Shown: positions 33,341-57,744, counted from the first letter of the stretch. The stretch is 64,000 nt of DNA from Parcubacteria group bacterium M6-OD1-3 (GCA_003056165.1 LSNR01000002.1:2726-66725); one strand, 5' to 3'. Made by a program: numbers and translations. Notes: generated by a model not told the origin, from the letters alone.

Positions 33341-34732
<1,392 letters not shown>

Positions 34733-36483: not shown

Positions 36484-36494
36484 TTTTAATTTAA

Positions 36495-36962: not shown

Positions 36963-36969
36963 CTACATC

Positions 36970-38460: not shown

Positions 38461-38477
38461 AAATTTTTCAATTATTA

Positions 38478-38570
38478 ATTTAGCATTTTGAATTTTGATT
38501 GAATGATTTAATGTTAAAATTTTTAATTAAAACATTAAATAACTAAGCTTTCAATCAAAATTCAAAATTT
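38478..38570. repeat. empty MITE-like copy of the 4HB element: two inverted terminal repeats facing each other with about 16 bp between
   Basis: ttagcattttgaattttgattgaatgatttaatgtt / aacattaaataactaagctttcaatcaaaattcaaaattt. Confidence 0.6.
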
Positions 38571-38586
38571 AATCCACAATTTATAA

Positions 38587-38988
38587 TTATTTTACCATCG
38601 CTTTTCTCAATTCCCGCAACTGTCTACTCACGCTTCCATCCAAAACCTCATCGCCAACCTTGATAATAACTCCACCTTTAATATTTTTATCTACTTTATT
38701 CTTTAAATGTACCTCCTTCGCTTGATATTTATTTTTTACAAATTCCTTAGTTTCATTTTGCAAACTTTCACTCAATTCTCGACGACTAATAACTTCCGCC
38801 TCCACAATCCCATTTTCTTTGTTCCAAATTTCCGAAAACTTTTTCACAATATCCGACAACAAATTTAACTGCCGATTTTTCTTCAATAGCTCCGCCAACT
38901 TTTTAATCACACCATCAACCTCACTCTCACTCTTTTTCTGAGTCAGCTCAAATAATGTCTGCGCATATTGTTTACTTGTTATTTTCAT
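38587..38988 (-). CDS. atpH: F-ATPase delta (OSCP) subunit, short form
   Basis: Operon position; conserved C-terminal 'GGVIIKVGDEVLDGSV'. Confidence 0.75.
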   Translation of the reverse strand: MKITSKQYAQTLFELTQKKSESEVDGVIKKLAELLKKNRQLNLLSDIVKKFSEIWNKENGIVEAEVISRRELSESLQNETKEFVKNKYQAKEVHLKNKVDKNIKGGVIIKVGDEVLDGSVSRQLRELRKAMVK

Positions 38989-39003
38989 AAATATAGTCAG
39001 TGT

Positions 39004-39156
39004 GTCATTCTGGAAAACATATTTTTCATCGTGAGCTTGCGAACGATAGAAAAATAGTTTATCCGGAATCTACCCTTTAATATATATCACAAATTATCAT
39101 ATAAATCCTTCTATTTTGGATTTTCTTTTTCAATTAATTCTATTTTTCAGGATGAC
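39004..39156. mobile_element. internally deleted (MITE-like) derivative of the GIY-YIG element: both termini (gtcattctggaa … ttcaggatgac), sub-terminal repeat and about 50 bp of the nuclease gene 3' end retained
   Basis: Compared by eye with 32845-33332. Confidence 0.6.
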
Positions 39157-41255: not shown

Positions 41256-42071
41256 TTATAAAGTAAACAATTTTCTAGCATTGTCAGTTGTTTGCTTCTC
41301 GACTTCTTTGATGTCAATTTTTAAAACATCTGCAATTTTTTTTGCCGTATATCTAACATTAATTGGTTCATTGCGACTATATCTCTCCAATGGTGATGGC
41401 GTTAAATATGGAGCATCTGTTTCTAGTATAATGTTTTTCAATCCAATTTCTTTTATTAATTTATCATAGCTTTCCGTATAAGTAACAATTCCATTTAAAC
41501 CAATTTTAAAACCCAGCTCAATAAACTTTTCCGCTGTTTTATAATTGCCAATAAAACTATGCACTACCCCTCTTCTTTTTACCAAGTTTTCTTTTAATAT
41601 TTCTAATAAATCATTGTACGCATCCCAACAATGTATAGCTATTGGTTTTTTTACTTCATTAGCAAGTCTGATGAATTCCTTAAAAACTTCTTTTTGTTTT
41701 TTCTTAATCTTCAATATTTCTTCTTCACCAAGCTTCTTATCGAAATGATGATAATCTAATCCCACTTCCCCAATTGCCACTACTTTTTTATTTTGTGCTA
41801 ATTGTAAATACTTTTTATAATTAAGTTTTTCAATATAATTTTCTTCGGGTAAAACATTTGGCGAATTAAAAAGATGGATTGGATGCAAACCTACTACCGC
41901 CCAAACTCCACTAGTATATTTTTCCGCATATTCAATTGCCCGCTGACTGGTTCGCCATTCTGCACCAACATTAATAAGCTGGACATCATTTTCTAGTGTC
42001 CGCTTAATCACCATATCTGCATCTTCTTTAAAATCCTTAAAATTTAAATGACAATGTGTGTCTATTAGCAT
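41256..42071 (-). CDS. tatD: TatD-family metal-dependent DNase
   Basis: 'MLIDTHCHLNF' N-terminus. Confidence 0.9.
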   Translation of the reverse strand: MLIDTHCHLNFKDFKEDADMVIKRTLENDVQLINVGAEWRTSQRAIEYAEKYTSGVWAVVGLHPIHLFNSPNVLPEENYIEKLNYKKYLQLAQNKKVVAIGEVGLDYHHFDKKLGEEEILKIKKKQKEVFKEFIRLANEVKKPIAIHCWDAYNDLLEILKENLVKRRGVVHSFIGNYKTAEKFIELGFKIGLNGIVTYTESYDKLIKEIGLKNIILETDAPYLTPSPLERYSRNEPINVRYTAKKIADVLKIDIKEVEKQTTDNARKLFTL

Positions 42072-42284
42072 AGCTTATTGTTTTATATACTTATTTTACT
42101 TATAATTAAAATACTTCTGACTTTAATACTAACTTATAATCTTATAACACACAAAAAATATGCAACACTATTTTCTTTCTAAAACAAAAATTCCAGAAAA
42201 CTTACCAGCAGAAATGCAAGATGCAATCAACAACTTAAAGCAATCTACTGACCAAAAAAATGTCTACACAAAGCCTACAAACTA

Positions 42285-42602
42285 ATGACTACTAAATACA
42301 GAGGCTATCGACTTAAAACATATCTTAATTTTTTTCAAATTTTTATATTTGATATTACAAAGCTATGGAATAGAACAGGATTTATTCATTGTCATAACGC
42401 CAACTATTTAATGAGAATATTATTGGTAAAAAGCGGTTTTTTTAAAAATAGCGATATTCAAAATAAATGGACACTGGTGTGGTATTTTTCTCCACATCAA
42501 TATCTACAAATAAAATTAAATAATGGCAGTACTATAAATATTGATATTTGGGGAAGTGCTTATGGAGTTAAATTTGGTAATTATGCGCATGGCATTCATT
42601 AA
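42285..42602 (+). CDS. small transglutaminase-like (Cys/His papain-fold) domain protein
   Basis: 'FIHCHNANYLMRILLVKSG…H…INIDIW' pattern; start overlaps (TAATG) a 41-aa upstream ORF at 42160-42285. Confidence 0.35.
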   Translation: MTTKYRGYRLKTYLNFFQIFIFDITKLWNRTGFIHCHNANYLMRILLVKSGFFKNSDIQNKWTLVWYFSPHQYLQIKLNNGSTINIDIWGSAYGVKFGNYAHGIH

Positions 42603-42640
42603 AGTTTTTTCAATTCCGTCTCCAAAACCTTTTTTCCATC
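42593..42640. repeat. 48-bp perfect direct repeat, left copy (right copy 52773-52820)
   Basis: cattcattaaagttttttcaattccgtctccaaaaccttttttccatc read identically at both sites. Confidence 0.9.
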
Positions 42641-42685
42641 TTCAGTGAATAGAAATTTAATAAAAAAAACCAATTTAGTAAAAAA

Positions 42686-43429
42686 CTAGCATTTCCTCCA
42701 AATAAATTTTAAAAAATTCATTTGCAATTTTGCCATTTCTCTATTTTCAATCACTACGCCAACAAAATTTGTTAAAGATATCATAGCAACTTTATCTCCA
42801 GAAACCAATAAATCTACATCAAACAAAAAATCTTTTGGCAATAATTTTGACTTACCTATATTATCAACAATGCCATTTTCAACATAACGCTTACCCTCCT
42901 TAGTATTCTCAACTAAGTCTCTTAACTCTCCGCCACTTTCATAAATATTTTTTAAAAATTCTCCACCATCTTTTTCACTAAATACAGTATAATATCTGTC
43001 GGCAGAAAAAATACTCCATAATCTTTTTGGTGTTTTAGTCATTTCCCGATAAATTGAGCGCATTCCTTCCTTACCTTCGTAAAATTTTACAGTTGGCTTC
43101 TTAGATGAAGTGTTATGCAAATCGACAAGCAATGGCAAAATCTCTTTCGCCTTTCTTTTTCTTTTTTCCAAAATGGTTAAAATCTTTTTAGGATTTTGTG
43201 GTATATAGTAAATGCGCTTTCCTTTAAAAGTTTTCTGCAGTAAGTCTTGTTTAAGCAATTTATCTACATAAATATACAATGCTGTTCTAATTATGTTAGA
43301 CTCGCGTGCAATTTCCGTGATATTAGCCACACCCAATCTCAACACGGCCAAATACACTTTGGCCTCATTTTTAGAAAAACCAAGTTCTCTCAGAATTTTC
43401 TCAATTTTTTGCTTATTTTCCATATACAT
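42686..43429 (-). CDS. TrmB-family transcriptional regulator
   Basis: N-terminal wHTH 'LGFSKNEAKVYLAVLRLGVANITEIARESNIIRTALYIYVDKLLKQDLL'. Confidence 0.7.
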   Translation of the reverse strand: MYMENKQKIEKILRELGFSKNEAKVYLAVLRLGVANITEIARESNIIRTALYIYVDKLLKQDLLQKTFKGKRIYYIPQNPKKILTILEKRKRKAKEILPLLVDLHNTSSKKPTVKFYEGKEGMRSIYREMTKTPKRLWSIFSADRYYTVFSEKDGGEFLKNIYESGGELRDLVENTKEGKRYVENGIVDNIGKSKLLPKDFLFDVDLLVSGDKVAMISLTNFVGVVIENREMAKLQMNFLKFIWRKC

Positions 43430-43707
43430 TTATTATGATTTTATGAAAATCTAACTATCATAAAAATTTATAAACTATTTTTATACTAATTAGGTTTTAC
43501 CTTATACTAAAAACTTAAAAGTGTCAACTTCTTTTGACACTTTTTTTAAAAAATAAACAGAATTGGGCTTAAAATAAGCGTTTTTACTAAAAATTTGACA
43601 ATAAAATTGTAAAAATTTGTATAAATTGTAGTATTCTAGTAGTTCATTGCATTCAAAAGCGCGAACGACGAATATCGTTTGAGCGCCAAAACCCGGGAGG
43701 TGGGAAA

Positions 43708-44310
43708 ATGAAGATAATCATTATCCGTCATGGTGTGGCGGAAAAAAGATTGAGCGGACAGGACGATTTGGATCGTCCTTTGATGAAAAATTGCGAGGAG
43801 TTTATCCCTCGACTCGGCGAATTTGATGCCGTTTTCTCTTCGCCGGCTCGCCGGTGTATTGAAACGGCAAAACTGGCGAGCGGACAAAACCCTATCGTTA
43901 TCAATTCTCTTTCCACTCATTTGTGGAATGTAAAAGTTGATAATGTTGAGGGTTGGGAACTAATTGAAAAATGTTACTATCTTCCGGATGGTAGCATGGC
44001 AGAAATTCCGCTCACTATGGCGTGGAAAAATATCTCTGCGCCGAAACAATCAGAAGCATGGAGACTTATTACCGGCGAGGCAATAAGTAAAATGTTTCAT
44101 GGCTACGGAATTGCGTGGAATCGCGTGCTTATTTGCATGCATCAATTCCACGCCCAAATGCTGGCGATTCGCCTGTTGGGCGAAAATCAGCCGGCAGTTG
44201 AAAAGTTTATTCGGGAAATGTATCTCCCTCCCGGAGGAACGATTCCATTAGAAGTTTTCCCCCTAGTGATTCGACCATCCAGAGGAAGAAATGGAGGAAT
44301 TTTTTTCTAG
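43708..44310 (+). CDS. histidine phosphatase superfamily (SixA / PGAM-like) protein
   Basis: 'IIIIRHGVAEK' RHG motif at N-terminus; locally GC-rich. Confidence 0.7.
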   Translation: MKIIIIRHGVAEKRLSGQDDLDRPLMKNCEEFIPRLGEFDAVFSSPARRCIETAKLASGQNPIVINSLSTHLWNVKVDNVEGWELIEKCYYLPDGSMAEIPLTMAWKNISAPKQSEAWRLITGEAISKMFHGYGIAWNRVLICMHQFHAQMLAIRLLGENQPAVEKFIREMYLPPGGTIPLEVFPLVIRPSRGRNGGIFF

Positions 44311-44318
44311 GTTTTTGG

Positions 44319-44358
44319 CCATTATCTCGTTATGGCTAAACGAGATAATGGTTTTCTT
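44319..44358 (+). terminator. 12-bp stem hairpin ccattatctcgt…acgagataatgg plus T-run
   Basis: Read directly. Confidence 0.55.
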
Positions 44359-44425
44359 ATAAAGTTTTCAAATTTAATTTGAAATTTTTTAAGGAAAGAC
44401 TATTTTAATAATTTAAAGCAAAAAT

Positions 44426-45817
44426 ATGGTTAAAAATAAAAATAAAAAAACCTCTTGGATTGACGACTATGCCAAAGCGGTAAAAGACTTTACTTATGAT
44501 CATGACCCGAATTCTCATCAACCTTTTGACGCCTTTTATTTCTATCCTTACTACTTTGATTTATGGTTGGATAAAATTTATCGCGCGATTGTTTTAATTA
44601 AAAGCAATGGAATTAACGATAAGGAAATTTTTTCCAAAATACCATCCCCTTCTTCTTTACGATTTGTATTTTACACAATCGTTAATATGACAGCTTATCT
44701 CAAATATCCAAAAACAAAATCTCGTGTTATTATTGATTTTTTCTTTAAATGTCTATCTAGTCAATCAAAAGATAATAATGTTTTTCATCAAGAAAGAATT
44801 TTGCTTAGAAGCAACGCAGAACTTAAAAAAATATTAACCGGCACCAAAAAAATAAAAACAAAATCCGAACAGCAATTAATTTCCAGATTGATCGGAACAT
44901 TATTGATGTATAATCACATTCTTTACAATGATTATTCAACTGACTATGGTTGCTGGATAGAGGGACCCTATAAAGTTGGTAATCGGATAATTTTAATTAG
45001 AAATTATCCGGATTTGTCGCCTAAAAATTTATGGCCGGAGTTGGAAAATCAATTCTTGAAAGACAAAAAGATTATAACCGTCTACAAAAATATTCCAATC
45101 AAAATGCAATATATGTCCAGCCACTTAGTTGCTAAAAATAATTATCAAAACAATCTTATCGCTTATCAAATATTCTCTAACGGCAAACCGCTCAATGATC
45201 TTTCCAGTTTGGACCAACTTATTAAAGACATTGCCAAGACAACCAGTCAACTGTACGAAAAAGTACGAAAAAAGAATATGACTGAAATTAAGGAACTTTT
45301 TTTACGACAGCAAGGATATGAACTAAAATGGCTATTTGATTTGGCTGGACTGGACTGGCGACCGGGCAACAAAAGACTTAAGCGAGCACAAAAAAGTAGA
45401 GTCCGCCGAAAAATTACTCCCGCCAGTAAACCGAAAACTCAAGAAGAATATGAATCACACATAGGAATTGATTTTTTGAGAAAATTATTTCAAAAAGATA
45501 TTACTCTTTATGGAAAAATAGCCAATAAAGGATTTGCTATCGGTAAAACGAAAATCGTTAAAACGCCAAAAGATTTTCGTTCATTTAAAATGGGTGATAT
45601 TTTGGTAACAACAATTACCAACCCCTCTTTTGTTGGCATCATTTCCAAAGCTGCCGCCATTATTACGGAACTAGGTGGCATCACTTCTCACCCGGCAATC
45701 ATTTCCCGAGAATTTAATTTGCCTTGTTTAGTTGGAGTCAAAAACGCCACCAAAAAATTAACTGATGGCGAATATATAGAAGTCAACGCTTACAAAGGGA
45801 AAGTCAAAGTTTTATAA
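44426..45817 (+). CDS. protein with unknown N-terminal domain (about 370 aa) and C-terminal PEP-utiliser mobile ('swivel') phosphohistidine domain
   Basis: 'GDILVTTITNPSFVGIISKAAAIITELGGITSHPAIISREFNLPCLVG'. Confidence 0.7.
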   Translation: MVKNKNKKTSWIDDYAKAVKDFTYDHDPNSHQPFDAFYFYPYYFDLWLDKIYRAIVLIKSNGINDKEIFSKIPSPSSLRFVFYTIVNMTAYLKYPKTKSRVIIDFFFKCLSSQSKDNNVFHQERILLRSNAELKKILTGTKKIKTKSEQQLISRLIGTLLMYNHILYNDYSTDYGCWIEGPYKVGNRIILIRNYPDLSPKNLWPELENQFLKDKKIITVYKNIPIKMQYMSSHLVAKNNYQNNLIAYQIFSNGKPLNDLSSLDQLIKDIAKTTSQLYEKVRKKNMTEIKELFLRQQGYELKWLFDLAGLDWRPGNKRLKRAQKSRVRRKITPASKPKTQEEYESHIGIDFLRKLFQKDITLYGKIANKGFAIGKTKIVKTPKDFRSFKMGDILVTTITNPSFVGIISKAAAIITELGGITSHPAIISREFNLPCLVGVKNATKKLTDGEYIEVNAYKGKVKVL

Positions 45818-45898
45818 TAATTACGAAATTTCAATAAAAAAAGCCTTGCCTCACATAAACTGTGTAAAGCAAGACTGAAATAATCTTAGACTTGGAAA

Positions 45899-46549
45899 CT
45901 ACAACGATAACTCAAAGCCGTCGTTGTAACCCTCGGAAACATTTTCCATTCCCATTTCTTTTCCGAAGTTATAAACACATTCACCATGGGTGATCACCCA
46001 GGCAATTGTGTCATCTTCTGCTCGTTTGAGCATTTCATAAATCTCAGTAATTACAAGACTCATTCTTTTGGCAATATGTTCGGGACCCTCCGCCCCAAAC
46101 CTCAATCGCTCCTCACGATATTGATCGGTCGAAAAAGCCTTCCAGAAATCCGCTCCCTGCCCCACACACTTTTTGCGGAGAAACTCAGCGAACGAAGTTT
46201 GGAACATAAGTGCCTCGCCCAGCCGGAAATCCAACCGAACATCAATAACGTTTCCGTTAGCATCCCGAATCTCCTCGGCAATTATTTTTGCCGTTTCATA
46301 AGCTCTTTGCCCCAATGTCGGGTCATCAAGCCAATAGGTTGGCGAGTACACGATTAGAAAATTCGTCGCTGGCACCATGTCAACCTCGGTAGATAGACGC
46401 AACAAGGTTTTAATCTTAACACCCTCAACACCCTTCGGAGTCAAACGACCCAATGTCGCCTGCTCCTCTGGAGTTGCGTTTCCTATGCCACCCTCCGGCC
46501 AACTGGAATCGTAGCGACCGTGTCGCTGGATAATAATTTTCTTCATCAC
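45899..46549 (-). CDS. histidine phosphatase superfamily protein (second copy)
   Basis: 'IIIQRHGRYD' RHG motif; locally GC-rich. Confidence 0.65.
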   Translation of the reverse strand: MMKKIIIQRHGRYDSSWPEGGIGNATPEEQATLGRLTPKGVEGVKIKTLLRLSTEVDMVPATNFLIVYSPTYWLDDPTLGQRAYETAKIIAEEIRDANGNVIDVRLDFRLGEALMFQTSFAEFLRKKCVGQGADFWKAFSTDQYREERLRFGAEGPEHIAKRMSLVITEIYEMLKRAEDDTIAWVITHGECVYNFGKEMGMENVSEGYNDGFELSL

Positions 46550-46659
46550 TATACCTCCTTTGTATCGTGATGTTTTTTCAAATTAAGCAAACTATATTAT
46601 TATATAGTTTACCTCCACTGACATTTCACTATCACATAAATGCAAAATAAAGTCAATAG

Positions 46660-47823
46660 CTATATAGTTTTTAAATCAAAATCAGTCAAATCAGGTGTCA
46701 TTACTTTTGCTTTTAATTCATCCGGCAAATACCAAACAAAGAAATAAAATGTTCCTGCATGTCCTGTTGGCTCGTCAATAAATTTAATCCCTTGCTTCTT
46801 TAATAATTTTTTCATTTTAACTTGAATTTCGCCGAGCCAGAGCGGAAGTAATACCGGGTCAATCATTCCCATCACATCTTTATACATTGCCAAGTTTTTT
46901 ACTTGCTCATAAGATAAAACGAATAATTCATATTCTTTTTTATTAAGTTTTTTCTTTGCTTCAAACTTTATTCTTCTTATTTTTTTCTTCATCAAAGCAT
47001 GTCTTTCTATCAACTTTTTGTTTCCCTTCCTAAACTCAACCGCATGAGTTAAAGCGTTATAAATAAGAGTTCTGTCACCACCTCGCATTTTAGTTTGCTC
47101 TATGGGAGTAAGAAGTAGCTTCTCTTTTAATACTTTAAAATCCTTTCGTTGAATAATATTATAAACTTTATCCCAAATCAAATTTATTTTCTTTTCATTT
47201 TTATCGACATTCTCATCTATCAAAATAATCGCTCTATTTAATAATTTTTTTATTTCAGGATCCTTAGATAAAATTTCTAAAATCTTTTGTCCGCCAAAAG
47301 AATCCAATAAATACAAGTCTGCATAATCTGTTTGTATTAAATCTCGTTGCAAAGAAGAAATCTTTTCCTCAAAATCTTCTGCGTCATTTCCAACATCAAC
47401 AATTTTGTATATAAGTCTTTTTAAATTGCTTATGAAAAACTCATGTAAAGGTCCATCAGAAAATAAATAATTAACTATCCAAAAACGATAGCAAATTAAT
47501 TTATTAAACCTTTGGTCTATACTAACTAAAAATTCCAGATCATTTTTATCACCGTTACCATAGTCTTTTTTGATTTTTGCAAAACCAACAAGTAATTCTT
47601 TTTGCGCCCAATCACCATATTTTCTAAATTTTTTTGGATTGTCAAAAACATTCTTAACAACACTTTCGTAATAAGAAATTATTGGAGGAAATTTATATGG
47701 ATAAAAACGCAAAAAACCTTCCAAATCGTTTGAAAGTGTTTGTGGAAATTTTAAGTATTTCTTATCAATCTTCATAAGTATAAATATTACCATTATCCCC
47801 ATCCAAAATAACTTTCTGTCCAT
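46660..47823 (-). CDS. hypothetical protein; possible paralogue of the N-terminal domain of 44426-45817 (shared F-x-F-YPY-x-F motif); start uncertain (overlaps upstream gene; alternative ATG at 47775)
   Basis: ORF track; similarity by eye only. Confidence 0.5.
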   Translation of the reverse strand: MDRKLFWMGIMVIFILMKIDKKYLKFPQTLSNDLEGFLRFYPYKFPPIISYYESVVKNVFDNPKKFRKYGDWAQKELLVGFAKIKKDYGNGDKNDLEFLVSIDQRFNKLICYRFWIVNYLFSDGPLHEFFISNLKRLIYKIVDVGNDAEDFEEKISSLQRDLIQTDYADLYLLDSFGGQKILEILSKDPEIKKLLNRAIILIDENVDKNEKKINLIWDKVYNIIQRKDFKVLKEKLLLTPIEQTKMRGGDRTLIYNALTHAVEFRKGNKKLIERHALMKKKIRRIKFEAKKKLNKKEYELFVLSYEQVKNLAMYKDVMGMIDPVLLPLWLGEIQVKMKKLLKKQGIKFIDEPTGHAGTFYFFVWYLPDELKAKVMTPDLTDFDLKTI

Positions 47824-49045
47824 CTTTTAAAACAATTGTTGCATTTTGAGTCCCAACTACGGCGGGAATATTAAATTCCCTTGACATAATGGCCGCATGG
47901 CACAAACTTCCTCCCAAGTCAGTGATAATTCCTTTAGATCTTTTTATTCCCAGTAAAAAAGGAGGTCTGGTCATCTTGGTAACAAGAATATCGCCTCTTT
48001 TTATTTTTGCCAATTCTTTACTCAAGCTTCCTGACATATTCATATCAATAATTCGAACAACACCGCTAACTTTTCCTCCTGAGGCTGAATACCCTGCCAA
48101 AACTCTTCTTGGCTTTCTTTCAAATTTCTTAAAATATATTCTCATTGCTTTTTCCAACGCCTGATATTCTATTGAAGATTGCAACCAACCTTTCTTATCG
48201 TGAGTAATTGGAATTCCTTCTATGTGCAGTTCTCCTATTATTTGCCGAATATCTTGATTTGGAGTAAGTCCAGTTTTATCATAGGTAGTCACAAGTCTTC
48301 CTCGTCTAAATGTGCTAAAACCATAATAACTTTTATTTAACCCAACCAATTGATACCCCCACCAACCAACGGCTTTACCTCCCTTAAATTTAATATTTAT
48401 TTTATTTTTCTTATCTTCAAGCAGCGTCGACTCGTAAGACTTACAATGACTTTTGTTAAAAATAATATCCACTTCCTTGTTGTTTATAAAAGGACCAAAC
48501 CTTGCTCCAAATTCAGTATTGATATTTTGCAATAATTTATCAGAAAATTTTACCTTTAGCTTTTTGATCACAACCACCGTGCCACTTGTTTTTTTATTTA
48601 CACCATTTTCAATATAAAATGGATATTCATTCCAATCTCCATTCTTCAACCAATCATCTTCACTGTATTTAATAATATATCTTTTATTAGAATTAATTTG
48701 AGTTGTATTTAATTCAAAAACCTTACCCAAAAATGATGTAGCTGTTTTTAATCCTAAGCCAAATTCTCCAAGTTTATTTTTCTTACTGGAAAATCCAAGT
48801 CTAATTGCTCTAGCGGACTCAATTTCACTCATTCCTCTTCCATTATCTATCACCTCAATTTTTTGAGGAGTTATGTTTATTTTTACTATCAATTTTTTAT
48901 TCGGTAAACGGGCGTCAATTGCATTATCAATAAGTTCAGATAAAGCTTCTTGAATAGAATATCCGGTCTGACTTATTTTTGTCAAAATACTCCTATGTGG
49001 AGTTATCTCAATAAACTTTTTCTCTATTTTTTTCGCCTTTTTCAT
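47765..49045 (-). CDS. GHKL (Bergerat-fold) ATPase fused to C-terminal PEP-utiliser swivel phosphohistidine domain
   Basis: N-box 'ELIDNAIDA', G1 'DNGRGM', G2 'GEFGLGLKTA'; C-terminus 'GDILVTKMTRPPFLLGIKRSKGIITDLGGSLCHAAIMSREFNIPAVVG'. Confidence 0.75.
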   Translation of the reverse strand: MKKAKKIEKKFIEITPHRSILTKISQTGYSIQEALSELIDNAIDARLPNKKLIVKINITPQKIEVIDNGRGMSEIESARAIRLGFSSKKNKLGEFGLGLKTATSFLGKVFELNTTQINSNKRYIIKYSEDDWLKNGDWNEYPFYIENGVNKKTSGTVVVIKKLKVKFSDKLLQNINTEFGARFGPFINNKEVDIIFNKSHCKSYESTLLEDKKNKINIKFKGGKAVGWWGYQLVGLNKSYYGFSTFRRGRLVTTYDKTGLTPNQDIRQIIGELHIEGIPITHDKKGWLQSSIEYQALEKAMRIYFKKFERKPRRVLAGYSASGGKVSGVVRIIDMNMSGSLSKELAKIKRGDILVTKMTRPPFLLGIKRSKGIITDLGGSLCHAAIMSREFNIPAVVGTQNATIVLKDGQKVILDGDNGNIYTYED

Positions 49046-49334
49046 TCCAAAATATTTTAAATTTTAAGTAATTTCAAAAATTCTACCATTAATTTCTATT
49101 ATTAACATATCTTTTTTATTATTCTCAGTCAAGTATCTGTACACGGTGTGTTTCATCTTATTTAGTATTATCATTGTCATGTTAATTACATTTAAAAATG
49201 TCATACCATTTATCAAATAGAAATGTCATGCTTTGAAAAATTTATTGATTTTTCAAATTTTAAAAAGTGGTCAAATTATGCACGTGCATAATTTGACCAC
49301 GGTCGAAAATTTATTTAATTTCTTTTGAAAAGTA

Positions 49335-51059
49335 TTATTTTGCTTTCTCCAAAATCCTCACAACGCCATTATCCGCATCAACTTCAACCAAATCACCGTC
49401 TTCCAAAACTTGTGTGGCAATTTTTGTTCCGATGATACACGGTTTTTTTAATTCACGAGCCACAATGGCAGCGTGACTTGTGATTCCTCCTTCATCTGTA
49501 ATAATTGCTTTAGCTTTTCTCATTAAGGGCATAAATTCTGGTCTTGTCATAGATGTAACTAAAATATCCCCTTTTTTGAATTTATTAAATTCTGAAAGTC
49601 TTAACACTGTTTTTACTTTACCTTCAATATCTCCTTTATATGCAACTTGCCCCATAAGCGATTCTTCGTCTCTTTTACAAGATTTAATATATTTTTCTTC
49701 CATTTTTTTCTTTATATCTTCAAAATTCTTATATTCAAATTCTGTAGAACCATCATAATTATGCAGAAATAAAACCCCTTCTTGTCTACTAATAATCTCC
49801 TCTTTTATTTTCTCTAAATAGTTTTTTCCTTTCAAAAACTCCTCAAAGGCACAATAATAAATTAATTCATTATTTAATCCAATTTCTCTAAAAAATCTTT
49901 CCCCAACTTTAAAGTTGATTACAATTCCCTTTCCCATAACATCTTTTTTCTTATCTCTTAAAACAAGAATTGTTTGTATATAATCGACTAATTGTTTTTC
50001 TTCTTTGTTTAATGAATCTCTCCAATTCTTAAAAGATTCTTTTGTTTCTTTGTATTCCAATTCTTCTTTTTTAAGTTCTTTAGATGCCATCTTATGATTC
50101 CTTAAGTATTCTGAGTAATCTTTCTTTATATTTTCTTCCATGTCTTTTATTGATTTTATTTCTATATATCCAGAGTAAGCATATTGCATCTCTTCAGCCA
50201 TATCCTTTACGTTTCTTAAATTTAATATTAAGTTTAGGATTTTTTTATGCCTTCTTTTATCAAAAGAATCCTCTGTTGGTATAATTGCTTTATCCCAGAC
50301 ATTTTCAACAACTTCAGGCTTTAAATCTAAATTGTGTTTATTAATAAATTCAAAGACAAGTTCCTTATCAAATTGTGTTGAGAACCATGCCGTGCAATTA
50401 TATTCCCTTACTAAACTAATTAGTCTTTCTAATTTTTTAATAATTTCTTCTTCTTTATAAGATTCTATATTTTTGTAAGACAAATCAAAATAAATTCCAT
50501 TTATCTCCTCCTCTAAAGTCTCTAAATATGAGATAGTTTTAGATAGTATTTTGTTATCTCTCATATACTTTACAAAAAAGTTTTCTGAAATCATATTATA
50601 CCTAGTTTCAGACATCAAAACAAAAGCTTTACCTTTTTTCATTGCTATAAGAAATTTTATATTTAAATCTTTAACTTTTCTGCCGAAATTAGGGGTAAAT
50701 CCTCCTGCTCCTGCAGCTAAAATTGAAACAGGAACTAAAGGATAAAAAACATCTCTTTCAAATCCTTTCATAAATTTACCTAAAAGTGTCTTGTGTTTTT
50801 GGATTATGCCACTAAGAGTCGTTATCGGTCTACTTTGCGTGATATAAAATTTTCCATTTTCTTGAGCCCATTCTATATCCTGCGGAAGTCCGTAATGGTC
50901 TTCTATTTTTTTAACAAGTTTCGCCAATTCTAAAATCTCTTTATCTGATAAAACTTGCTCTTGACCTTTTTCACCCAACTTCAACCACTCATTACCACCA
51001 CCATCTTTACGATAAAGTCCCCTGTCCTGCTCACTAATATTTTTTTCTAAAATTTTCAT
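49335..51059 (-). CDS. C-terminal fragment of a PEP-synthase / rifampin-phosphotransferase-like protein (end of ATP-grasp, central domain, swivel His domain)
   Basis: 'PQDIEWAQENGKFYITQSRPITTL' (end of PPDK_N) and 'GDILVTSMTRPEFMPLMRKAKAIITDEGGITSHAAIVARELKKPCIIG'. Confidence 0.75.
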   Translation of the reverse strand: MKILEKNISEQDRGLYRKDGGGNEWLKLGEKGQEQVLSDKEILELAKLVKKIEDHYGLPQDIEWAQENGKFYITQSRPITTLSGIIQKHKTLLGKFMKGFERDVFYPLVPVSILAAGAGGFTPNFGRKVKDLNIKFLIAMKKGKAFVLMSETRYNMISENFFVKYMRDNKILSKTISYLETLEEEINGIYFDLSYKNIESYKEEEIIKKLERLISLVREYNCTAWFSTQFDKELVFEFINKHNLDLKPEVVENVWDKAIIPTEDSFDKRRHKKILNLILNLRNVKDMAEEMQYAYSGYIEIKSIKDMEENIKKDYSEYLRNHKMASKELKKEELEYKETKESFKNWRDSLNKEEKQLVDYIQTILVLRDKKKDVMGKGIVINFKVGERFFREIGLNNELIYYCAFEEFLKGKNYLEKIKEEIISRQEGVLFLHNYDGSTEFEYKNFEDIKKKMEEKYIKSCKRDEESLMGQVAYKGDIEGKVKTVLRLSEFNKFKKGDILVTSMTRPEFMPLMRKAKAIITDEGGITSHAAIVARELKKPCIIGTKIATQVLEDGDLVEVDADNGVVRILEKAK

Positions 51060-51061
51060 AA

Positions 51062-52054
51062 TTATTTCTTTAACAACAACAAAAGCAAGCCGACAATTCG
51101 GTCTTTGTCTTTTGGTTTTGATTCTACTACCAAAAGAGTGATAGCAGTCAATGCTTCTGGAGTAATTTTATGTCTAAACTTTATGCCAACTTTTTGCAAA
51201 AACCAAATAAAAGCAAACGCTCCTGTTCGTTTGTTACCGTCGGTGAATGGATGATTTTTAACTACAAAATATAATAAGTGAATTGCTTTTTCTTCTACGG
51301 TTAAATAAACATCTTGACCAAAAACTGCCTGCAAAACATTTCCTAAAATTCCCTCTAAAGTTTTTTGTTTTTTCTCTTGGGCAAATAATTCTGTTGCTTG
51401 TTTTTTCTTAATTAGTTCTTTTTTGAATTTTGCCACTGCTTCATATAATTCATCAGCTTGAATTTTCACTTTCTTTTTAGTGCTTCCTTTAATCGGAAAT
51501 TTATCTTCATCATAAGATTCTAAAGATAACCACGCCCCGGAAAAAGATTTTATCAATTCTAAAATATCAGCAGTTTTTACTGCATTATTTTCGGGTAATA
51601 ATTTTTTGACATCATCAACTGCTTTGATGAATTTATCGTAATTTTTCCCGATGATTTCCGGATTCATATTATAACCTTGATAAATATATTGCCTTAATAT
51701 TCTATTTGACCATTTTCTAAATTTTACGGCTTGAGCTGAATTAGTACGATAACCAACTGCTAAAATAATATCCAAATTATAGAATTCAACTTGTCGTTTT
51801 ATTTCCCTTTTTCCCTCTTTTTGAACTTGTGCAAAAATTGCACTAGTTGAATTTTTATCAACCTCCTTATCTTTAAAAATATTTTTAATATGCTTAGTTG
51901 TCACAGAACGCTCTATTCCAAAAACCTCCGCAATTTGTTTTTGCGTCGCCCAAATAGTTTCATTACCAAAATCACCCCGTAATTCAATTCCGCCGTTTTT
52001 TGCTTGATAAATTACCAAGTTTTTATTTAATTTTACAATCTTTTTCTGAACCAT
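51062..52054 (-). CDS. Fic/Doc-family protein with N-terminal RhuM-like domain; intact Doc-type motif HPFTDGNKRTGAFA
   Basis: ORF track; motifs read directly. Confidence 0.8.
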   Translation of the reverse strand: MVQKKIVKLNKNLVIYQAKNGGIELRGDFGNETIWATQKQIAEVFGIERSVTTKHIKNIFKDKEVDKNSTSAIFAQVQKEGKREIKRQVEFYNLDIILAVGYRTNSAQAVKFRKWSNRILRQYIYQGYNMNPEIIGKNYDKFIKAVDDVKKLLPENNAVKTADILELIKSFSGAWLSLESYDEDKFPIKGSTKKKVKIQADELYEAVAKFKKELIKKKQATELFAQEKKQKTLEGILGNVLQAVFGQDVYLTVEEKAIHLLYFVVKNHPFTDGNKRTGAFAFIWFLQKVGIKFRHKITPEALTAITLLVVESKPKDKDRIVGLLLLLLKK

Positions 52055-52080
52055 ATTATTAACTCACTTTAATTAACTTT

Positions 52081-52779
52081 TTATTTTTTACCAACAACAT
52101 AACTATCCGGTGTGATTTGTCCAGAGACAATAGATTCTCCCAAACCAAATCCTGCTTCAATTATTATTTGATTTCTATCTTCTGTTACTGGATGAACAGA
52201 AAAAGCAATGCCTGATTTTTCAGAATTTATCATTTTTTGGATTACTACTGCGACGGAAATTTTATCTTTATTTAATTTTTTTTCAAAACGATAAAAGATT
52301 GCTCTCGACGTAAATAGTGAAGCCCAGCATTTTTTAACATTTTTCAATAAGTCTTTTTCGGTTGTATTTAAAAAAGAATCTAATTGTCCTGCCCAAGCAT
52401 TTTCTTGTCCGTCTTCCGCTGTAGCTGAGCTACGCACTGCAACAAACTTGGCATTTAACTTTTTAAATTCTTTTTCAATTTCTTTCTTGATTGCTTCTGG
52501 AATTTTTGCTTTTAAAATCAAAGACCGGATATTTTTTGACGCTTTTTCAACACTTTGAAGCTTTTTGACATTTACTTTTTTCAACTCTTTTTGTATTTTT
52601 GAAGTTAGATTATTTTTTTCTAAAAATTCTTCAAAAGTTTTTGTTAAAATCACAAAACCGTCTGGAACTGGAATTCCCGCTTGTGTCATCTCACCAAGTG
52701 AAGCCCCTTTACCTCCAGCAATATGAGTGTCTTTTTTTGATAGTTGTTCAAATGATTTGGTAAACATATCTTCATTCAT
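52081..52779 (-). CDS. N-terminal fragment of the same PEP-synthase-like ATP-grasp (PPDK_N) protein
   Basis: 'GGKGASLGEMTQAGIPVPDGFVIL'; ends …DSYVVGKK, where E. coli PpsA continues …DEFYVHKPT…. Confidence 0.75.
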   Translation of the reverse strand: MNEDMFTKSFEQLSKKDTHIAGGKGASLGEMTQAGIPVPDGFVILTKTFEEFLEKNNLTSKIQKELKKVNVKKLQSVEKASKNIRSLILKAKIPEAIKKEIEKEFKKLNAKFVAVRSSATAEDGQENAWAGQLDSFLNTTEKDLLKNVKKCWASLFTSRAIFYRFEKKLNKDKISVAVVIQKMINSEKSGIAFSVHPVTEDRNQIIIEAGFGLGESIVSGQITPDSYVVGKK

Positions 52780-52820
52780 TAAAGTTTTTTCAATTCCGTC
52801 TCCAAAACCTTTTTTCCATC
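52773..52820. repeat. 48-bp perfect direct repeat, right copy
   Basis: See 42593-42640; here it spans the NUDIX stop / PEP-synthase-fragment start. Confidence 0.9.
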
Positions 52821-53264
52821 CTTATTAAACAAAAAATTACCTTCAAAGTTTTTACCAGATAATAAAAGTGGCAACCAATACTGATCATCAACCCACATTT
52901 TTTTATAAGGAATTTCACTATGTTCAAACCATCTAGGCAACATTTCTTCCGTTTCTTCCGGCTCACCAATTATATTATCGCTGACAATAGAGAAAAAATT
53001 TACTTCCAAAATTTCTTTTAATTTATTTTCAAAACGAAAATCTATTATACCTCTTTTTATAAGACTCTCTTTGCTTTTTATTTTGAGACAACTTTCTTCA
53101 AATAATTCTCGCTCTGCTGCCTCAAAAATATTTTCATTTTTTTCTACTTTACCGCCAAAACCATTCCATTTCCCCATCCCAAACCCTCTCTTTTTCATTC
53201 CCAAAAGAATTTTTTCATTATCATAAACTAAAATCAGTGTCAGTTTTTGTTTTTTCATTATCAT
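52779..53264 (-). CDS. NUDIX hydrolase
   Basis: Nudix box 'GGKVEKNENIFEAAERELFEESCL'. Confidence 0.8.
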   Translation of the reverse strand: MIMKKQKLTLILVYDNEKILLGMKKRGFGMGKWNGFGGKVEKNENIFEAAERELFEESCLKIKSKESLIKRGIIDFRFENKLKEILEVNFFSIVSDNIIGEPEETEEMLPRWFEHSEIPYKKMWVDDQYWLPLLLSGKNFEGNFLFNKDGKKVLETELKKL

Positions 53265-53282
53265 AATAATATGGAGGCCTAA

Positions 53283-53305
53283 TATGGAGGCCTTGCCTCC
53301 ATATT
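53283..53305. repeat. REP-like GC-rich hairpin atatggaggc-ctt-gcctccatat (half-copy at 53269-53280; further copies at 53780-53798 and 53991-54013)
   Basis: Read directly. Confidence 0.7.
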
Positions 53306-53308
53306 CAT

Positions 53309-54010
53309 CTATTCAAAACTATTTTTTAATATTTCTTTATTTTTTAAAATACCCCGTAGCTGTCTATTGGCAAACTGCTCATACTCTTTCTTATCCCTAG
53401 TGAAAGAATCTAAAATATATCCAGTTGTACAAAGATTAGTTTTCATATTTTTTATATATTCAGGAAGGCTGGTTCTATATTTATTATTTCTGCCACTTTC
53501 ATCTCTTTTAATTTTGTGGACTTTAAAATTTAAATTGACATATACTGATAATCTATTCAAATATTCTTGTGTGCCAATATGCTTAGCTTTAAATTTCCCT
53601 TGAAACAAAGATCCATTTCTTTTGTTTTTCTTATTAAAATACATAGTATAACCTGTTCCAATCTTTTGCATAAATTTAGAAATACCACCTTCAATATTTT
53701 GTCTCAAGATAAAATGAAAATGATTTGGCAACAAACAAAATGCCACTACTTCTACTAACATGGAGGCCTTGCCTCCATTCTTAATCTTTTTAGAATACTT
53801 GTATTGTGGGACACCACCTAGAGAGTTTTCTTGATTAAATAAATCAATAATTTGTAAAAATTTAAAAAAATCTTGGCTATCTTCAAAAATAACTCTTCTA
53901 TCTATACCTCTATTGTAAATATGATAAAATTCGTCTGTGCTAAATCTTATTTTTCTTATACTCATACTCAATTTTATATCATTTTCCCCATATGGAGGCA
54001 AGGCCTCCAT
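53309..54010 (-). CDS. REP-associated tyrosine transposase (RAYT, IS200/IS605-like HuH Y1)
   Basis: 'FYHIYNRGIDRRVIFED', HuH 'LLPNHFHFIL', 'YTMYFNKKNKRNGSLFQGKFK'. Confidence 0.75.
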   Translation of the reverse strand: MEALPPYGENDIKLSMSIRKIRFSTDEFYHIYNRGIDRRVIFEDSQDFFKFLQIIDLFNQENSLGGVPQYKYSKKIKNGGKASMLVEVVAFCLLPNHFHFILRQNIEGGISKFMQKIGTGYTMYFNKKNKRNGSLFQGKFKAKHIGTQEYLNRLSVYVNLNFKVHKIKRDESGRNNKYRTSLPEYIKNMKTNLCTTGYILDSFTRDKKEYEQFANRQLRGILKNKEILKNSFE

Positions 54011-54027
54011 ATAGTTCTTGCAACTAT

Positions 54028-55446
54028 TTATTTTATTCTTTCAAACAAAATTTCTTTTTTACCTGTTTCTAGTTGTTGTTTTATTTTAATTGAAGTTTCT
54101 GGCATAAATGATTCTAGAAGCTGAGCTATAAAATACAAATCTTCAACTAATTTTTCCATTACTTTCTCAAATTCTTTCTTACTACTTTTTGCTAGTTCCC
54201 ACGGCTTTGTTTCTTCAATGTATTTATTACTCTTCTGAACAAGATGACTCCAAATTCTTTCTAGCGCCTTATCAAACCATAAGCTTTCGATAAACATTTT
54301 ATTCCACTGTATTGGATCATATATTTTTCTTTCAATATTACTAAAATCAATATTTTCACTTAATTTCACAACTCGCGAAACCAAATTTCCCAAACCATTT
54401 GCTAGATCAGCATTATATTTTTCAACCATTCTTTCTATTGTAATATCAATATCTTCTCCGAAAGTTCCAGCTGAAAGTAAAAGATAGCGTGTACCATCTG
54501 TACCAAATTTCTCCAACATCTCATCAATACTAATCACATTGCCGATTGTTTTACTCATCTTTTTTCCGTCCGATAAAATATGTCCGTGCACAAAAAGCTG
54601 TTTTGGCAACTCAATTCCTAAGTGCATTAACATTATTGGCCAAATTGTAGCGTGAACCCGTAAAATATCTTTACCCAACATTTGAATATTCGCTGGCCAA
54701 AAATCTGGAATTTTATTTACATCACCATTCCACCCTAGTCCTGTTAAATAATTTAACAAAGCATCAAACCAAACGTAAGCCGTGTGCGTTTCGTCAAATG
54801 GCAACGGAATTCCCCAATTAACATTTTTTCGTGAAATAGATAAATCTTCCAACTCATTATTTTTTAGAAATGACAAGATTTCCTTTTTATATTTTTCTGG
54901 TCTAATTTTAAAGTCATCACTTTCAATTTTTTGAATCAATTCAGTTTGTCTTTCATCCATTTTCATCATATAGCTTTCTTCCTTCATCACTTCCGGTTCT
55001 ACATTATGATCCGGACATTTTCCATCCACTAAATCACTTTCGTTTTTAAATTGCTCACAACCAACGCAATATAATCCTTCATATTCTCCCTTATAAATCA
55101 CTCCTTTATCATATAAAGTTTGCAAAGAAACCTGAATTGCTTTTTTGTGTTCAGGATTTGTCGTTCGAATAAAATTATCATATTCAATATCTAATTCTTG
55201 CCAAAGTTTTTTAAAGTCATCTGAAACTTCATTTACCAATTCCTGGGGTTTTTTGCTTTCCTCTTTTGCTTTTTGTGCAATTTTTGCTCCATGTTCATCC
55301 ATTCCCGTTAAAAAGAAGGTTTTTGTTTTTTGTAATTTATAGAATCGTGCTAATGCATCAGTCGCGACAGTTGTATATGCATGCCCAATATGCGGTTGTG
55401 CGTTAGCATAATAAATTGGAGTTGTTATATAAAATTTATTTTTCAT
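54028..55446 (-). CDS. metG: methionyl-tRNA synthetase (short form)
   Basis: 'HIGH' in 'AQPHIGHAYT', 'KMSKT', Zn knuckle 'CVGCEQF…CPDH'. Confidence 0.9.
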   Translation of the reverse strand: MKNKFYITTPIYYANAQPHIGHAYTTVATDALARFYKLQKTKTFFLTGMDEHGAKIAQKAKEESKKPQELVNEVSDDFKKLWQELDIEYDNFIRTTNPEHKKAIQVSLQTLYDKGVIYKGEYEGLYCVGCEQFKNESDLVDGKCPDHNVEPEVMKEESYMMKMDERQTELIQKIESDDFKIRPEKYKKEILSFLKNNELEDLSISRKNVNWGIPLPFDETHTAYVWFDALLNYLTGLGWNGDVNKIPDFWPANIQMLGKDILRVHATIWPIMLMHLGIELPKQLFVHGHILSDGKKMSKTIGNVISIDEMLEKFGTDGTRYLLLSAGTFGEDIDITIERMVEKYNADLANGLGNLVSRVVKLSENIDFSNIERKIYDPIQWNKMFIESLWFDKALERIWSHLVQKSNKYIEETKPWELAKSSKKEFEKVMEKLVEDLYFIAQLLESFMPETSIKIKQQLETGKKEILFERIK

Positions 55447-55500
55447 AAAAAATTGTATTTTAAAAAATATGACAAAACAACTATAGACTCACGAATTTTG

Positions 55501-55585
55501 CGGTGAGGACAGGATTCGAACCTGCGAAGAGTTGCCCCTTACACGCTTTCCAAGCGTGCTCCTTCAACCACTCGGACACCTCACC
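55501..55585 (-). tRNA. tRNA-Ser (anticodon GGA)
   Basis: Own fold: acceptor GGTGAGG/CCTCACC, discriminator G, anticodon stem-loop cacgc-TTGGAAA-gcgtg, long variable arm, T-arm caGGTTCGAATCCtg. Confidence 0.85.
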
Positions 55586-55588
55586 ATT

Positions 55589-57031
55589 TTAATTACTAAT
55601 TTTTTTAACGCCGATTAATCGCATCTTTTTGCCGGCAGGAGAACGTCCGATTATTATTATAATTTTATCATCCTTCTCCAACTTCTTATCATTCTTAGCT
55701 TTTTTTACCAATTTGTCAATAAATACACTCAGGTTTTTTTGCTTTTCAAATAAGTAACAATCTACACCCCACAGAAGAGAAAGTTGATTAAATGTTTTTT
55801 TATTGTTAGTCGCCACTAAAATTTGTTGCTCCGGACGAAAATGGGAAACCAATTTAGCTGTAAAACCACTAATGCTTATCATACAAATTGCCTCAGCATC
55901 AAAACTTTTAGCTAGTTCATACGCGCTTTTTACAACTACCGCGTATTCCGATTTAATTTTATAATCCAATGCCTCATAAATATCATCGTAAATGGATTCT
56001 TCGGTTTTTTCGATAATTTTACTCATAATAGAAACGCTTTCCGTTGGATATTTTCCAGTAGCGCTTTCGCCGGAAAGCATCACCGCATCAACATGATCAA
56101 TGATTGCATTAGTTACATCACCAACTTCGGCGCGTGTCGGTCGCGGATTATCTATCATACTATTCAACATTTGTGTCGCCACAATAACCGGCTTAACACA
56201 TTTTATACTCTTGGAAATAATTTCTTTTTGCAATATTATTACCCTACTTTGATCCATTTCTATTCCGAGATCTCCTCTAGCCACCATTATTGCGTCTGTC
56301 TCTTTAATAATTTCATCCAAATTGTCAATCGCTTCCTGTCGCTCAATCTTAGCGATAATTTGCGGATAATGACTCTTCTTTTTCTTTTGAATTATCTTCC
56401 GAAGCCTTTTAATATCTTTAGCATTTTTTACAAAAGAAAGTGCTACGAAATCAACATCGTTTTTTAAAGCAAAGTCCAAATCCTTTTTATCCTTAGTAGT
56501 AATAACATCAATATCCAAGTTTGCTCCAGGAATATTAACGCCCTTGTGATTTCTGATTATTCCCCCATCAATAACTTTCACCTGACAACTTTTTTTATTA
56601 TTTTTAATTATGCGTAATTTTATCAAGCCATCTTCGATTAAAATATCCTGTCCCTTTTTTAACCCTTCAAGAATATTTTTTTTATCTAAATAAACTATTT
56701 TTGCATCAATTGAATTATCTTTTTTAGATTTGCTATCAATCTCACAAATTTTAATCTTATCACCACTTTTTACAACAATTTCTTTTTCAACCGCAACTCT
56801 AATTCTTGGGCCTTGCAAATCTGCCAAAATTCCAACATTAACATTGAGTTTTTCAGAAACTTTTCGAACTCTAGTCATCACCTGTTTGTGCCAACTATGT
56901 TCTCCGTGTGAAAAATTAAAGCGTGCAACATTTAATCCGGATTGCATCATCTTCTTTAAAACCTCTTCACTTTCCGAAGCCGGTCCAATTGTCGCCACAA
57001 TTTTTGTTCTTTTTTGTTTGTATTTATTCAT
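55589..57031 (-). CDS. pyk: pyruvate kinase
   Basis: 'KIVATIGPAS', 'NFSHG'. Confidence 0.9.
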   Translation of the reverse strand: MNKYKQKRTKIVATIGPASESEEVLKKMMQSGLNVARFNFSHGEHSWHKQVMTRVRKVSEKLNVNVGILADLQGPRIRVAVEKEIVVKSGDKIKICEIDSKSKKDNSIDAKIVYLDKKNILEGLKKGQDILIEDGLIKLRIIKNNKKSCQVKVIDGGIIRNHKGVNIPGANLDIDVITTKDKKDLDFALKNDVDFVALSFVKNAKDIKRLRKIIQKKKKSHYPQIIAKIERQEAIDNLDEIIKETDAIMVARGDLGIEMDQSRVIILQKEIISKSIKCVKPVIVATQMLNSMIDNPRPTRAEVGDVTNAIIDHVDAVMLSGESATGKYPTESVSIMSKIIEKTEESIYDDIYEALDYKIKSEYAVVVKSAYELAKSFDAEAICMISISGFTAKLVSHFRPEQQILVATNNKKTFNQLSLLWGVDCYLFEKQKNLSVFIDKLVKKAKNDKKLEKDDKIIIIIGRSPAGKKMRLIGVKKISN

Positions 57032-57083
57032 AAAAATATCGTAATTAACAAATAATGTTAATTATAAACCAAAATTAGAAAAT

Positions 57084-57662: not shown

Positions 57663-57744
57663 AAAATTATAAGTTATTAATTTTTTAGCTAAGCTATCCG
57701 CAAATAAAATATTTTAAAAAATTAGTTATTTAAAATTTAAAATT

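Follow-up and report, generated by a model that had tools for sequence, protein, structure and literature searches.

The window analyzed here is a stretch of 64,000 nucleotides from Parcubacteria group bacterium M6-OD1-3 (GCA_003056165.1, LSNR01000002.1:2726-66725). The chromosome has a GC content of ~32%, and nearly all of its genes lie on the − strand. Read along that strand, genes for PolA, EngB, pyruvate kinase, tRNA-Ser, methionyl-tRNA synthetase (MetRS), a RAYT transposase, and a NUDIX hydrolase are followed by one copy of a direct repeat and a gene island. Beyond the island, in the same direction, lie the second copy of the repeat, a small gene on the + strand, TatD, and the F-type ATP synthase operon. 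As judged from sequence comparisons, the locus is an integrase-less, strain-variable island bounded by attL/attR-like repeats. The features at the locus are listed below, in coordinates of the window.

41256-42071, − strand: TatD, a core flank, directly downstream of NUDIX in relatives.
42160-42602, + strand: small convergent gene conserved in Patescibacteria (147 aa in relatives, invariant HC..H..D), outside the repeats.
42593-42659, − strand: left repeat copy (attR-like), an orphan NUDIX 3′ fragment (aa 143-161, stop, and 6 nt), with its core at 42593-42640.
42660-52772, no strand assigned: inserted island between the 67-nt units (10,113 bp, nine genes, no recombinase found).
52773-52839, − strand: right repeat copy (attL-like), comprising NUDIX codons 143-161, the stop, and 6 nt, with its perfect core at 52773-52820.
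52779-53264, − strand: NUDIX hydrolase of 161 aa, the target gene, whose homologues are named 8-oxo-dGTP diphosphatase (MutT-like) by the sources.
53275-54012, − strand: RAYT (Y1_Tnp) with repetitive extragenic palindrome (REP)-like hairpins, a separate insertion outside the island (gene at 53309-54010; hairpins at 53282-53304, 53758-53780, and 53990-54012).
54028-55446, − strand: MetRS, a core flank, directly upstream of NUDIX in relatives.

The original prediction, made from the sequence of the window alone, had reported identical 48-bp direct repeats at 42593-42640 and 52773-52820. This 48-mer (CATTCATTAAAGTTTTTTCAATTCCGTCTCCAAAACCTTTTTTCCATC) does occur in two exact copies on the same strand (0 mismatches), and only twice: no third copy is found in the window even if up to 3 mismatches are allowed, and a match of this kind was seen in 0 of 100 dinucleotide-preserving shuffles. 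The 48 bp are, however, the perfect core of the repeat rather than its full length. By ungapped similarity, the repeat unit spans 67 nt (42593-42659 versus 52773-52839, 60 of 67 positions identical), and past these 67 nt the similarity is not significant (the left flanks share a 9-mer, P = 0.08; right flanks, P = 0.45 to 0.61). Within the 64 kb, no other repeat of such a kind involves these genes.

The 67-nt unit consists of the last 19 codons of the NUDIX gene (143 to 161), its stop codon, and 6 further nt. On the − strand, the right copy encodes the NUDIX end N F L F N K D G K K V L E T E L K K L, followed by the stop and by TGAATG. As predicted, it thus holds the NUDIX C terminus, the stop codon (TAA, 52781-52779), and the ATGAATG start of the next gene, in which an overlapping ATG (52779-52777) opens the open reading frame (ORF) 52081-52779; gene callers on related contigs favor an ATG 12 nt further on. 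The left copy, in the same frame and on the same strand, reads K F L F T E D G K K V L E T E L K K L and stop; tblastn finds no NUDIX-like stretch in the window beyond the gene itself and this one (aa 144-161, 16 of 18 identical). The left copy is an orphan 67-nt fragment of the NUDIX 3′ end that starts at codon 143. A second NUDIX paralogue was ruled out as its source, as the other NUDIX genes of contigs L001 and L107 are unrelated. Neither an Rfam match nor a folding signal marks the left copy as an RNA element, and no third, degraded copy lies between the small convergent gene and TatD. The repeat is a coding gene end, and by eye it shows no obvious dif-like dyad; an IMEX, which host XerCD inserts at dif, would have a dif-like site of 28 bp at each border.

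The left copy had also been predicted to supply the last codons and stop of a transglutaminase-like ORF. The + strand ORF 42285-42602 does end there, with GGC ATT CAT TAA (G I H stop) and with its last 10 nt inside the left repeat, but the label finds no Pfam match in this small Cys-His-Asp gene and is best regarded as plausible and unverified. The family to which the gene belongs (147 aa) is confined to Patescibacteria-like genomes and has a conserved C terminus, AHG[F/I]H, in addition to the invariant HC...H...D. Because the homologues likewise end in AHG[F/I]H and a stop, the end of the small gene is native and was not made by the repeat. The 6 nt past the NUDIX stop in both copies therefore derive from the convergent gene, and the duplicated item is therefore the chromosomal junction at which the NUDIX gene and the small gene face each other. 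Both of these flanking genes are preserved to the base. A frameshift in a run of A7 (42254-42260) divides the small gene into 41 and 105 aa, and the identical split is called in four independent contigs (L004, L005, L006, and L098); two readings are possible, a pseudogene and a gene prone to slippage.

To place the locus in context, we compared it with related lineages. The closest homologues of the NUDIX protein are found in Moranbacteria and Patescibacteria metagenome-assembled genomes. In three lineages, whose NUDIX is 69 to 73% identical to that of the window, MetRS, NUDIX, TatD, and ATP synthase genes are contiguous. The distance from NUDIX to TatD in these lineages and in the window is as follows.

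L012 and L013: 74 nt.
L102 to L104: 15 nt.
L105 and L106: 40 nt.
The window: 10,707 nt.

Given gaps of 15 to 74 nt in three lineages versus 10.7 kb in the window, the enclosed genes are an insertion, and the suggestion that they form an acquired island was correct. The proposed search for an "empty" NUDIX-adjacent site succeeded in part: NUDIX and TatD are contiguous in the three lineages, but no such site was found among close strains. In a scan of genome contigs, the matches listed included only distant NUDIX relatives (46 to 58% identity), without synteny. L107, in which a NUDIX gene lies beside the small gene, was rejected as an empty site: the NUDIX gene there, an unrelated paralogue, points in the same direction as the small gene.

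Two further lineages carry other genes around NUDIX. In L010 (NUDIX 74% identical), an AbiE toxin-antitoxin pair lies downstream of NUDIX, while in L008/L009 (ERZ23491265 and JGI 3300028843; NUDIX 95% identical), an AbiE pair precedes NUDIX and PPDK_N, the domain encoded by the island gene next to the right repeat, follows it. Since these cassettes differ among L010, L008/L009, and the window, the surroundings of NUDIX are a hotspot. The AbiEi/AbiEii pair itself lies at 345-1716 of L008 (upstream of NUDIX), at 9903-11274 of L010 (downstream), and at 5796-7201 of L097, beside an unsplit PPDK_N gene; the copies of L008 and L010 are 78 to 80% identical, and the pair is another roaming cassette near the same genes. 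No direct repeats flank the AbiE cassettes in L008 or L010, the two contigs covered by this check.

The two repeat copies do not differ at random. All 7 differences between them fall in the distal 19 of the 67 nt (P = 5.8e−5 under random placement), where the left copy reads AAATTTCTATTCACTGAA and the NUDIX gene of the window reads AATTTTTTGTTTAATAAG. In this patch, the left copy matches the NUDIX of L008/L009 at 18 of 19 positions, and over the whole unit at 65 of 67, versus 60 of 67 for the NUDIX of the window. The codons AAA and TTC are common to the left copy and L008/L009 and are absent from the NUDIX genes of the window, L010, L012, L102, and L105. L008/L009 also carry the identical right junction between NUDIX and PPDK_N (TAATGAATG joined to AAGATATG), with the AbiE pair and not RAYT as the upstream context; a second lineage thus has a related island at this site. 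The placement of the differences marks the edge of the 48-nt core as a recombination breakpoint: on one side of this sharp boundary the copies are identical, and on the other they have separate histories. The mosaic points to the footprint of a reciprocal crossover inside that core, which would have taken place between the resident gene and an L008-like copy of the junction.

The PPDK_N gene itself has only 79 to 90% nucleotide identity between the window and L008/L009. In a comparison of L008 with 52300-53264 of the window, nucleotide identity is 95% in NUDIX, 74% in the adjacent end of MetRS, and 79% in PPDK_N, and within PPDK_N it drops along the gene from 88 to 90% to 73%. This gradient around NUDIX may reflect recombinational exchange centered on that gene.

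The island itself contains the following nine genes.

42686-43429, − strand: TrmB-family helix-turn-helix regulator, in the conserved left arm of the island; strains diverge beyond 43648.
43708-44310, + strand: histidine phosphatase (His_Phos_1), with a GC content of 0.449 and a GC content at third codon positions (GC3) of 0.428, atypical for the genome.
44426-45817, + strand: 463-aa protein with an unknown N-terminal region and a C-terminal PEP-utilizers swivel domain.
45899-46549, − strand: weak histidine-phosphatase match, under the Pfam cutoff (GC 0.473, GC3 0.498).
46660-47823, − strand: protein conserved in Patescibacteria, function unknown (371 aa when counted from an internal Met).
47765-49045, − strand: MORC-like GHKL ATPase with an S5-fold domain and a swivel domain.
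49335-51059, − strand: C-terminal part of a rifampin-phosphotransferase-like gene (ATP-grasp, middle, and swivel domains), with the end of PPDK_N and the swivel domain.
51062-52054, − strand: RhuM/Fic-Doc cassette (PADLOC candidate PDC-S23), which splits the ATP-grasp gene.
52081-52779, − strand: N-terminal part of the split ATP-grasp gene (PPDK_N positions 3-224), which starts at the right repeat or 12 nt after it.

With RhuM/Fic as PDC-S23 and a MORC-like ATPase, the cargo is accessory and defence-like, and it is strain-variable. The 371-aa protein belongs to a widespread Patescibacteria family; its AlphaFold2 model is all-alpha (pLDDT 93.5) and has no fold match in PDB, so that it is not of a known recombinase fold, and the protein has no convincing similarity to the N terminus of the 463-aa protein. 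The two His-phosphatase genes have a GC content of 0.45 to 0.47 and a GC3 of 0.43 to 0.50, versus a GC3 of 0.19 to 0.30 in other genes, and the point at which co-occurring strains diverge, 43648, is beside the gene at 43708-44310. The pair has the appearance of a nested and more foreign acquisition.

Both borders of the island are supported by independent contigs. L004, L005, and L007 run from the small gene through the left repeat into TrmB, and L001, L002, and L003 run from PPDK_N through the right repeat into NUDIX; they derive from different assemblies and have 99.8 to 100% identity to the window. One NCBI contig of 70,085 bp holds proteins from both sides and from the island interior. The repeat is accordingly not an assembly artifact, a possibility that the original prediction had raised. 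Short-k Logan contigs do terminate within the repeat (L006 at 42622, L100 and L101 at 42611), as is expected because the sequence has two copies.

Between its borders, the island varies. L001 (GCA_003056105.1, LSNT01000006.1) matches the window at 99.83% identity over 50814-63264 (12.4 kb) and diverges at 50814; it is without 49075-50813, retains 48966-49074, and then leads into genes that are not in the window, among them a radical-SAM gene and an IS1595 transposase. Its alternative interior (12452-20486 of L001) includes a truncated ATP-grasp gene and the first 26 codons of the MORC-like gene. The point of divergence of L100 is 43648, at the margin of the high-GC phosphatase gene, and several contigs terminate at 42821 or 43614. 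Comparison of the contigs indicates that the island interior is reshuffled among near-identical strains, with both junction arms conserved.

We propose that the repeats are the attR-like and attL-like junctions of a ~10.1-kb island that probably entered by one Campbell-type crossover at the 3′ end of NUDIX. The incoming DNA, circular or otherwise able to recombine, would have carried its own 67-nt copy of the junction, acquired in an earlier host whose NUDIX allele resembled that of L008. A crossover within the 48 nt that are now identical would have left both the resident NUDIX and the convergent gene intact and would have placed an orphan NUDIX tail with a foreign allele, presumably of lateral origin, at the far end of the island. 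The responsible enzyme is not encoded by the island: either an integrase module was lost, so that the island would be a decayed element with only its att-like ends, or the short homology was used by homologous recombination of the host. After the insertion, the interior would have been reshuffled between near-identical strains. The enzymatic mechanism of integration, site-specific or homologous, is unproven.

Several observations weigh against this proposal. First, relatives with "empty" sites also lack the small convergent gene, which lies outside the repeats. The locus therefore requires one more event or several, and the repeats, although they do flank an insertion as predicted, do not bound all of the extra DNA at the locus. 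Second, a second NUDIX tail was found downstream of NUDIX in 0 of 91 other NUDIX loci examined, and recurrent use of the site is therefore shown for at most two lineages. Third, the nine island proteins include no integrase, transposase, relaxase, or phage gene in Pfam, NCBIfam, PHROGs, and PADLOC scans, in agreement with the prediction that no integrase lies inside; the N-terminal 340 aa of the 463-aa protein are uncharacterized, which limits the scope of this negative. No recombinase was found among the 29 other window proteins scanned. As a recombinase is absent, an "att site" is something that we infer: of the predicted att-type duplication or recombination scar, the duplicated target and the mosaic breakpoint hold, while the att site lacks its recombinase.

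Fourth, the GC content of the island is 0.3216 versus 0.3214 outside, and the predicted contrast in GC and codon usage did not materialize: neither GC nor tetranucleotide composition gives a signal for the island, only the two His-phosphatase genes deviate, and any donor would therefore be a close relative. Fifth, neither an empty site nor a circular junction was found in contig-level data. An empty site would read TTTAATAAGGATGG, the 48-nt core, and CCATGCGCATAATTACC, and a circle would read TTTTTTTTATTAAATTTCTATTCACTGAAGATGG, the core, and AAGATATGTTTACC. A scan of metagenome contigs for the 48-nt core returned three contigs, all with occupied junctions, and exact-protein look-ups returned occupied contexts only. 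Sixth, no viral, plasmid, or phage relatives of the island were matched in the collections searched, and viral, plasmid, phage, and metagenome searches gave no related integrase-bearing element for the NUDIX site. Finally, the PPDK_N of L008 has a nucleotide identity of only 79%, and the L008 lineage is therefore not the immediate donor.

That same divergence is what would be expected under shared descent, and it leads to an alternative that we regard as unlikely, although it is the strongest of those considered. The island could be old and vertically inherited, having arisen a single time before the lineages of the window and L008 split, with copies that were at first identical and L008-like; ~19 nt of the NUDIX gene of the window would later have been overwritten from a third allele by gene conversion or a homologous tract. 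The identical right junction in L008/L009 and the 79 to 90% identity of PPDK_N fit this history, and the 0 differences in 48 nt fit a moderate age, given that the window and L008 differ there by 1 nt. Yet an extra event is required, with a tract that ends exactly at the edge of the core. Moreover, the patch of the window shares AAT and TTT with outgroups, while the left copy and L008 share the derived AAA and TTC, so the NUDIX of the window would need a re-import of ancestral-type sequence. The left end of the island in the L008 lineage is also not seen.

A less probable explanation, and a doubtful one in our view, is that the repeats never were recombination sites and are the scar of a one-off replacement. 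Linear DNA from a relative (MetRS through NUDIX and the island to TrmB) would have recombined homologously upstream and been joined illegitimately at codon 143, leaving behind the last 67 nt of the old gene. The absence of a recombinase, the lineage-specific cassettes at the NUDIX hotspot (RAYT, the AbiE pair upstream or downstream, and the island), and a GC content that equals that of the genome and implies a closely related donor are all compatible with such a replacement. It predicts the resident allele in the orphan tail and the donor allele in the full gene, which is possible, but it does not account for the shared end point of the two copies, exactly 6 nt beyond the stop codon, for the occurrence of this right junction in L008/L009 with another upstream context, or for the preservation of both flanking genes to the base.

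The original prediction had placed a RAYT transposase about 500 bp outside the repeats, and the Y1_Tnp gene at 53309-54010 is indeed 489 bp from the right copy. This proximity and the IS1595 transposase in the alternative island of L001 could suggest that RAYT or another transposase mobilized the island, with the repeats as a target-site duplication, but we consider this very improbable. The REP-like hairpins ATATGGAGGCCTTGCCTCCATAT, which are perfect inverted repeats, occur only around the RAYT gene (53282-54012) and not at the borders of the island, and no terminal inverted repeats adjoin the direct repeats. A 67-nt duplication far exceeds the target duplications made by transposases. RAYT is also absent between MetRS and NUDIX in L010, L012, and L102, where both genes overlap or abut, and hence is an independent insertion; in L105, a gap of 460 nt separates the two genes. 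The RAYT gene is a separate insertion unrelated to the repeats, and its presence as a hint of mobilization is not upheld. The third hairpin copy (53758-53780) lies inside the RAYT reading frame, and the upstream hairpin includes the annotated start codon. Lastly, chance similarity or an assembly artifact, to which AT-rich composition and the breaks of short-k assemblies in the repeat might point, has next to no probability in light of the 0 matches in 100 shuffles, the different assemblies across both junctions, and the spanning 70,085-bp contig.

The window contains two other cassettes that have no recombinase. A Fic/Doc gene (14151-15200, − strand) lies between 97-nt direct repeats (13992-14088 and 15326-15422) that are 95% identical and represent the 3′ part of a 49-aa AbrB/MazE-like gene. 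That gene is complete at 13994-14143 and truncated, with a premature stop, at 15337-15429; a diverged third copy is found at 61209-61305. The Fic cassette, with its 97-nt AbrB/MazE-like tail, is a second recombinase-less cassette bounded by a duplicated gene end. Within the island, the RhuM/Fic gene (51062-52054) sits precisely within the rifampin-phosphotransferase-like ATP-grasp gene, whose halves (232 aa and 574 aa) are still open. The ends of this cassette form an imperfect repeat of ~22 nt (52081-52102 versus 51062-51084; shuffle P ~0.007), and an unsplit ATP-grasp homologue (4806-5783 of L097) reads straight across the insertion point.

It is tempting, but at present quite speculative, to conjecture that the three cassettes (the island, Fic, and RhuM/Fic) mark a common and undescribed insertion route in the Candidate Phyla Radiation (CPR) that acts via short copies of gene ends. 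Such a route could use circular or linear DNA and either host recombination or a recombinase supplied in trans, with flanking genes preserved. If true, it would amount to integrase-free exchange of cassettes at fixed hotspots.

Elsewhere in the window, the 16S rRNA gene (23545-25647) is 2.1 kb long versus 1533 positions in the model and holds ~570 nt of inserted sequence; inserted sequence within 16S rRNA is often met in CPR bacteria. The region of the ATP synthase operon (32700-39150) contains several families of intergenic repeats, direct and inverted (for example, 32725-32791 and 36490-36556, 32957-33017 and 39089-39149, and 33264-33333 versus 39003-39071), and a 23S_rRNA_IVP-type gene is called in this region on contig L004.

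The locus provides a base-accurate case of an uncultured CPR bacterium with a reduced genome gaining and reshuffling accessory genes at a hotspot flanked by core genes, with both junctions and the "empty" sites of relatives documented. It also delimits the swivel, His-phosphatase, MORC, and RhuM/Fic genes as a horizontally acquired, strain-variable set, which matters for the assignment of their function: they are accessory or possibly defence-related, not part of core metabolism. If the integrase-free structure were general in CPR, it would bear on gene flow in lineages with few recognizable mobile elements; the evidence falls short of this.

The kind of structure is already familiar, being the signature of a genomic island, here in an uncultured bacterium of the Moranbacteria (CPR). 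What goes beyond an ordinary island is that there is no integrase and that two further recombinase-less cassettes with duplicated gene ends lie in the same window. As in attL/attR islands at gene 3′ ends, the repeats come from the 3′ end of the target and leave the target gene intact, accessory or defence-like genes make up the cargo, relatives lack the segment at the orthologous site, and the orphan copy is a "fossil" allele of a former host. Unlike in such islands, which have a tyrosine or serine recombinase by one end and a deviating composition, no recombinase is found at the ends or inside and the composition does not deviate, nor was an excision product or an empty site seen in contigs of the same population. 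The host, a CPR/Patescibacteria bacterium, is a further difference.

A transposon or insertion sequence likewise leaves direct repeats of its target on both sides of the insert, but 67 nt is too long, terminal inverted repeats are missing, and the island has no transposase. The RAYT/REP system differs in that REP hairpins border the DNA that it mobilizes, whereas here they are found only around the RAYT gene. When host RecA integrates transforming DNA in a Campbell-type or homology-facilitated event, a single crossover in a short identity with the chromosome, from a donor that may be circular or linear, gives a repeat-flanked insert without an enzyme of the element. The locus resembles this in its repeat-flanked structure (48 nt of identity) and in having no element-encoded enzyme; a homology of 48 to 67 nt is near the lower limit for efficient RecA-dependent recombination, and this process alone leaves the origin of the junction copy in the donor unexplained. 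A cis-mobilizable element (CIME) retains attL and attR and is missing the genes for integration and transfer (PMC5704250). The island is like a CIME in that attL/attR-like ends are kept and no integration or transfer genes are found; it is unlike one in that a CIME derives by decay from an integrative and conjugative or integrative and mobilizable element and can be mobilized by the integrase of a related element, whereas here neither remnant conjugation or integration modules nor a cognate integrase-bearing element were found.

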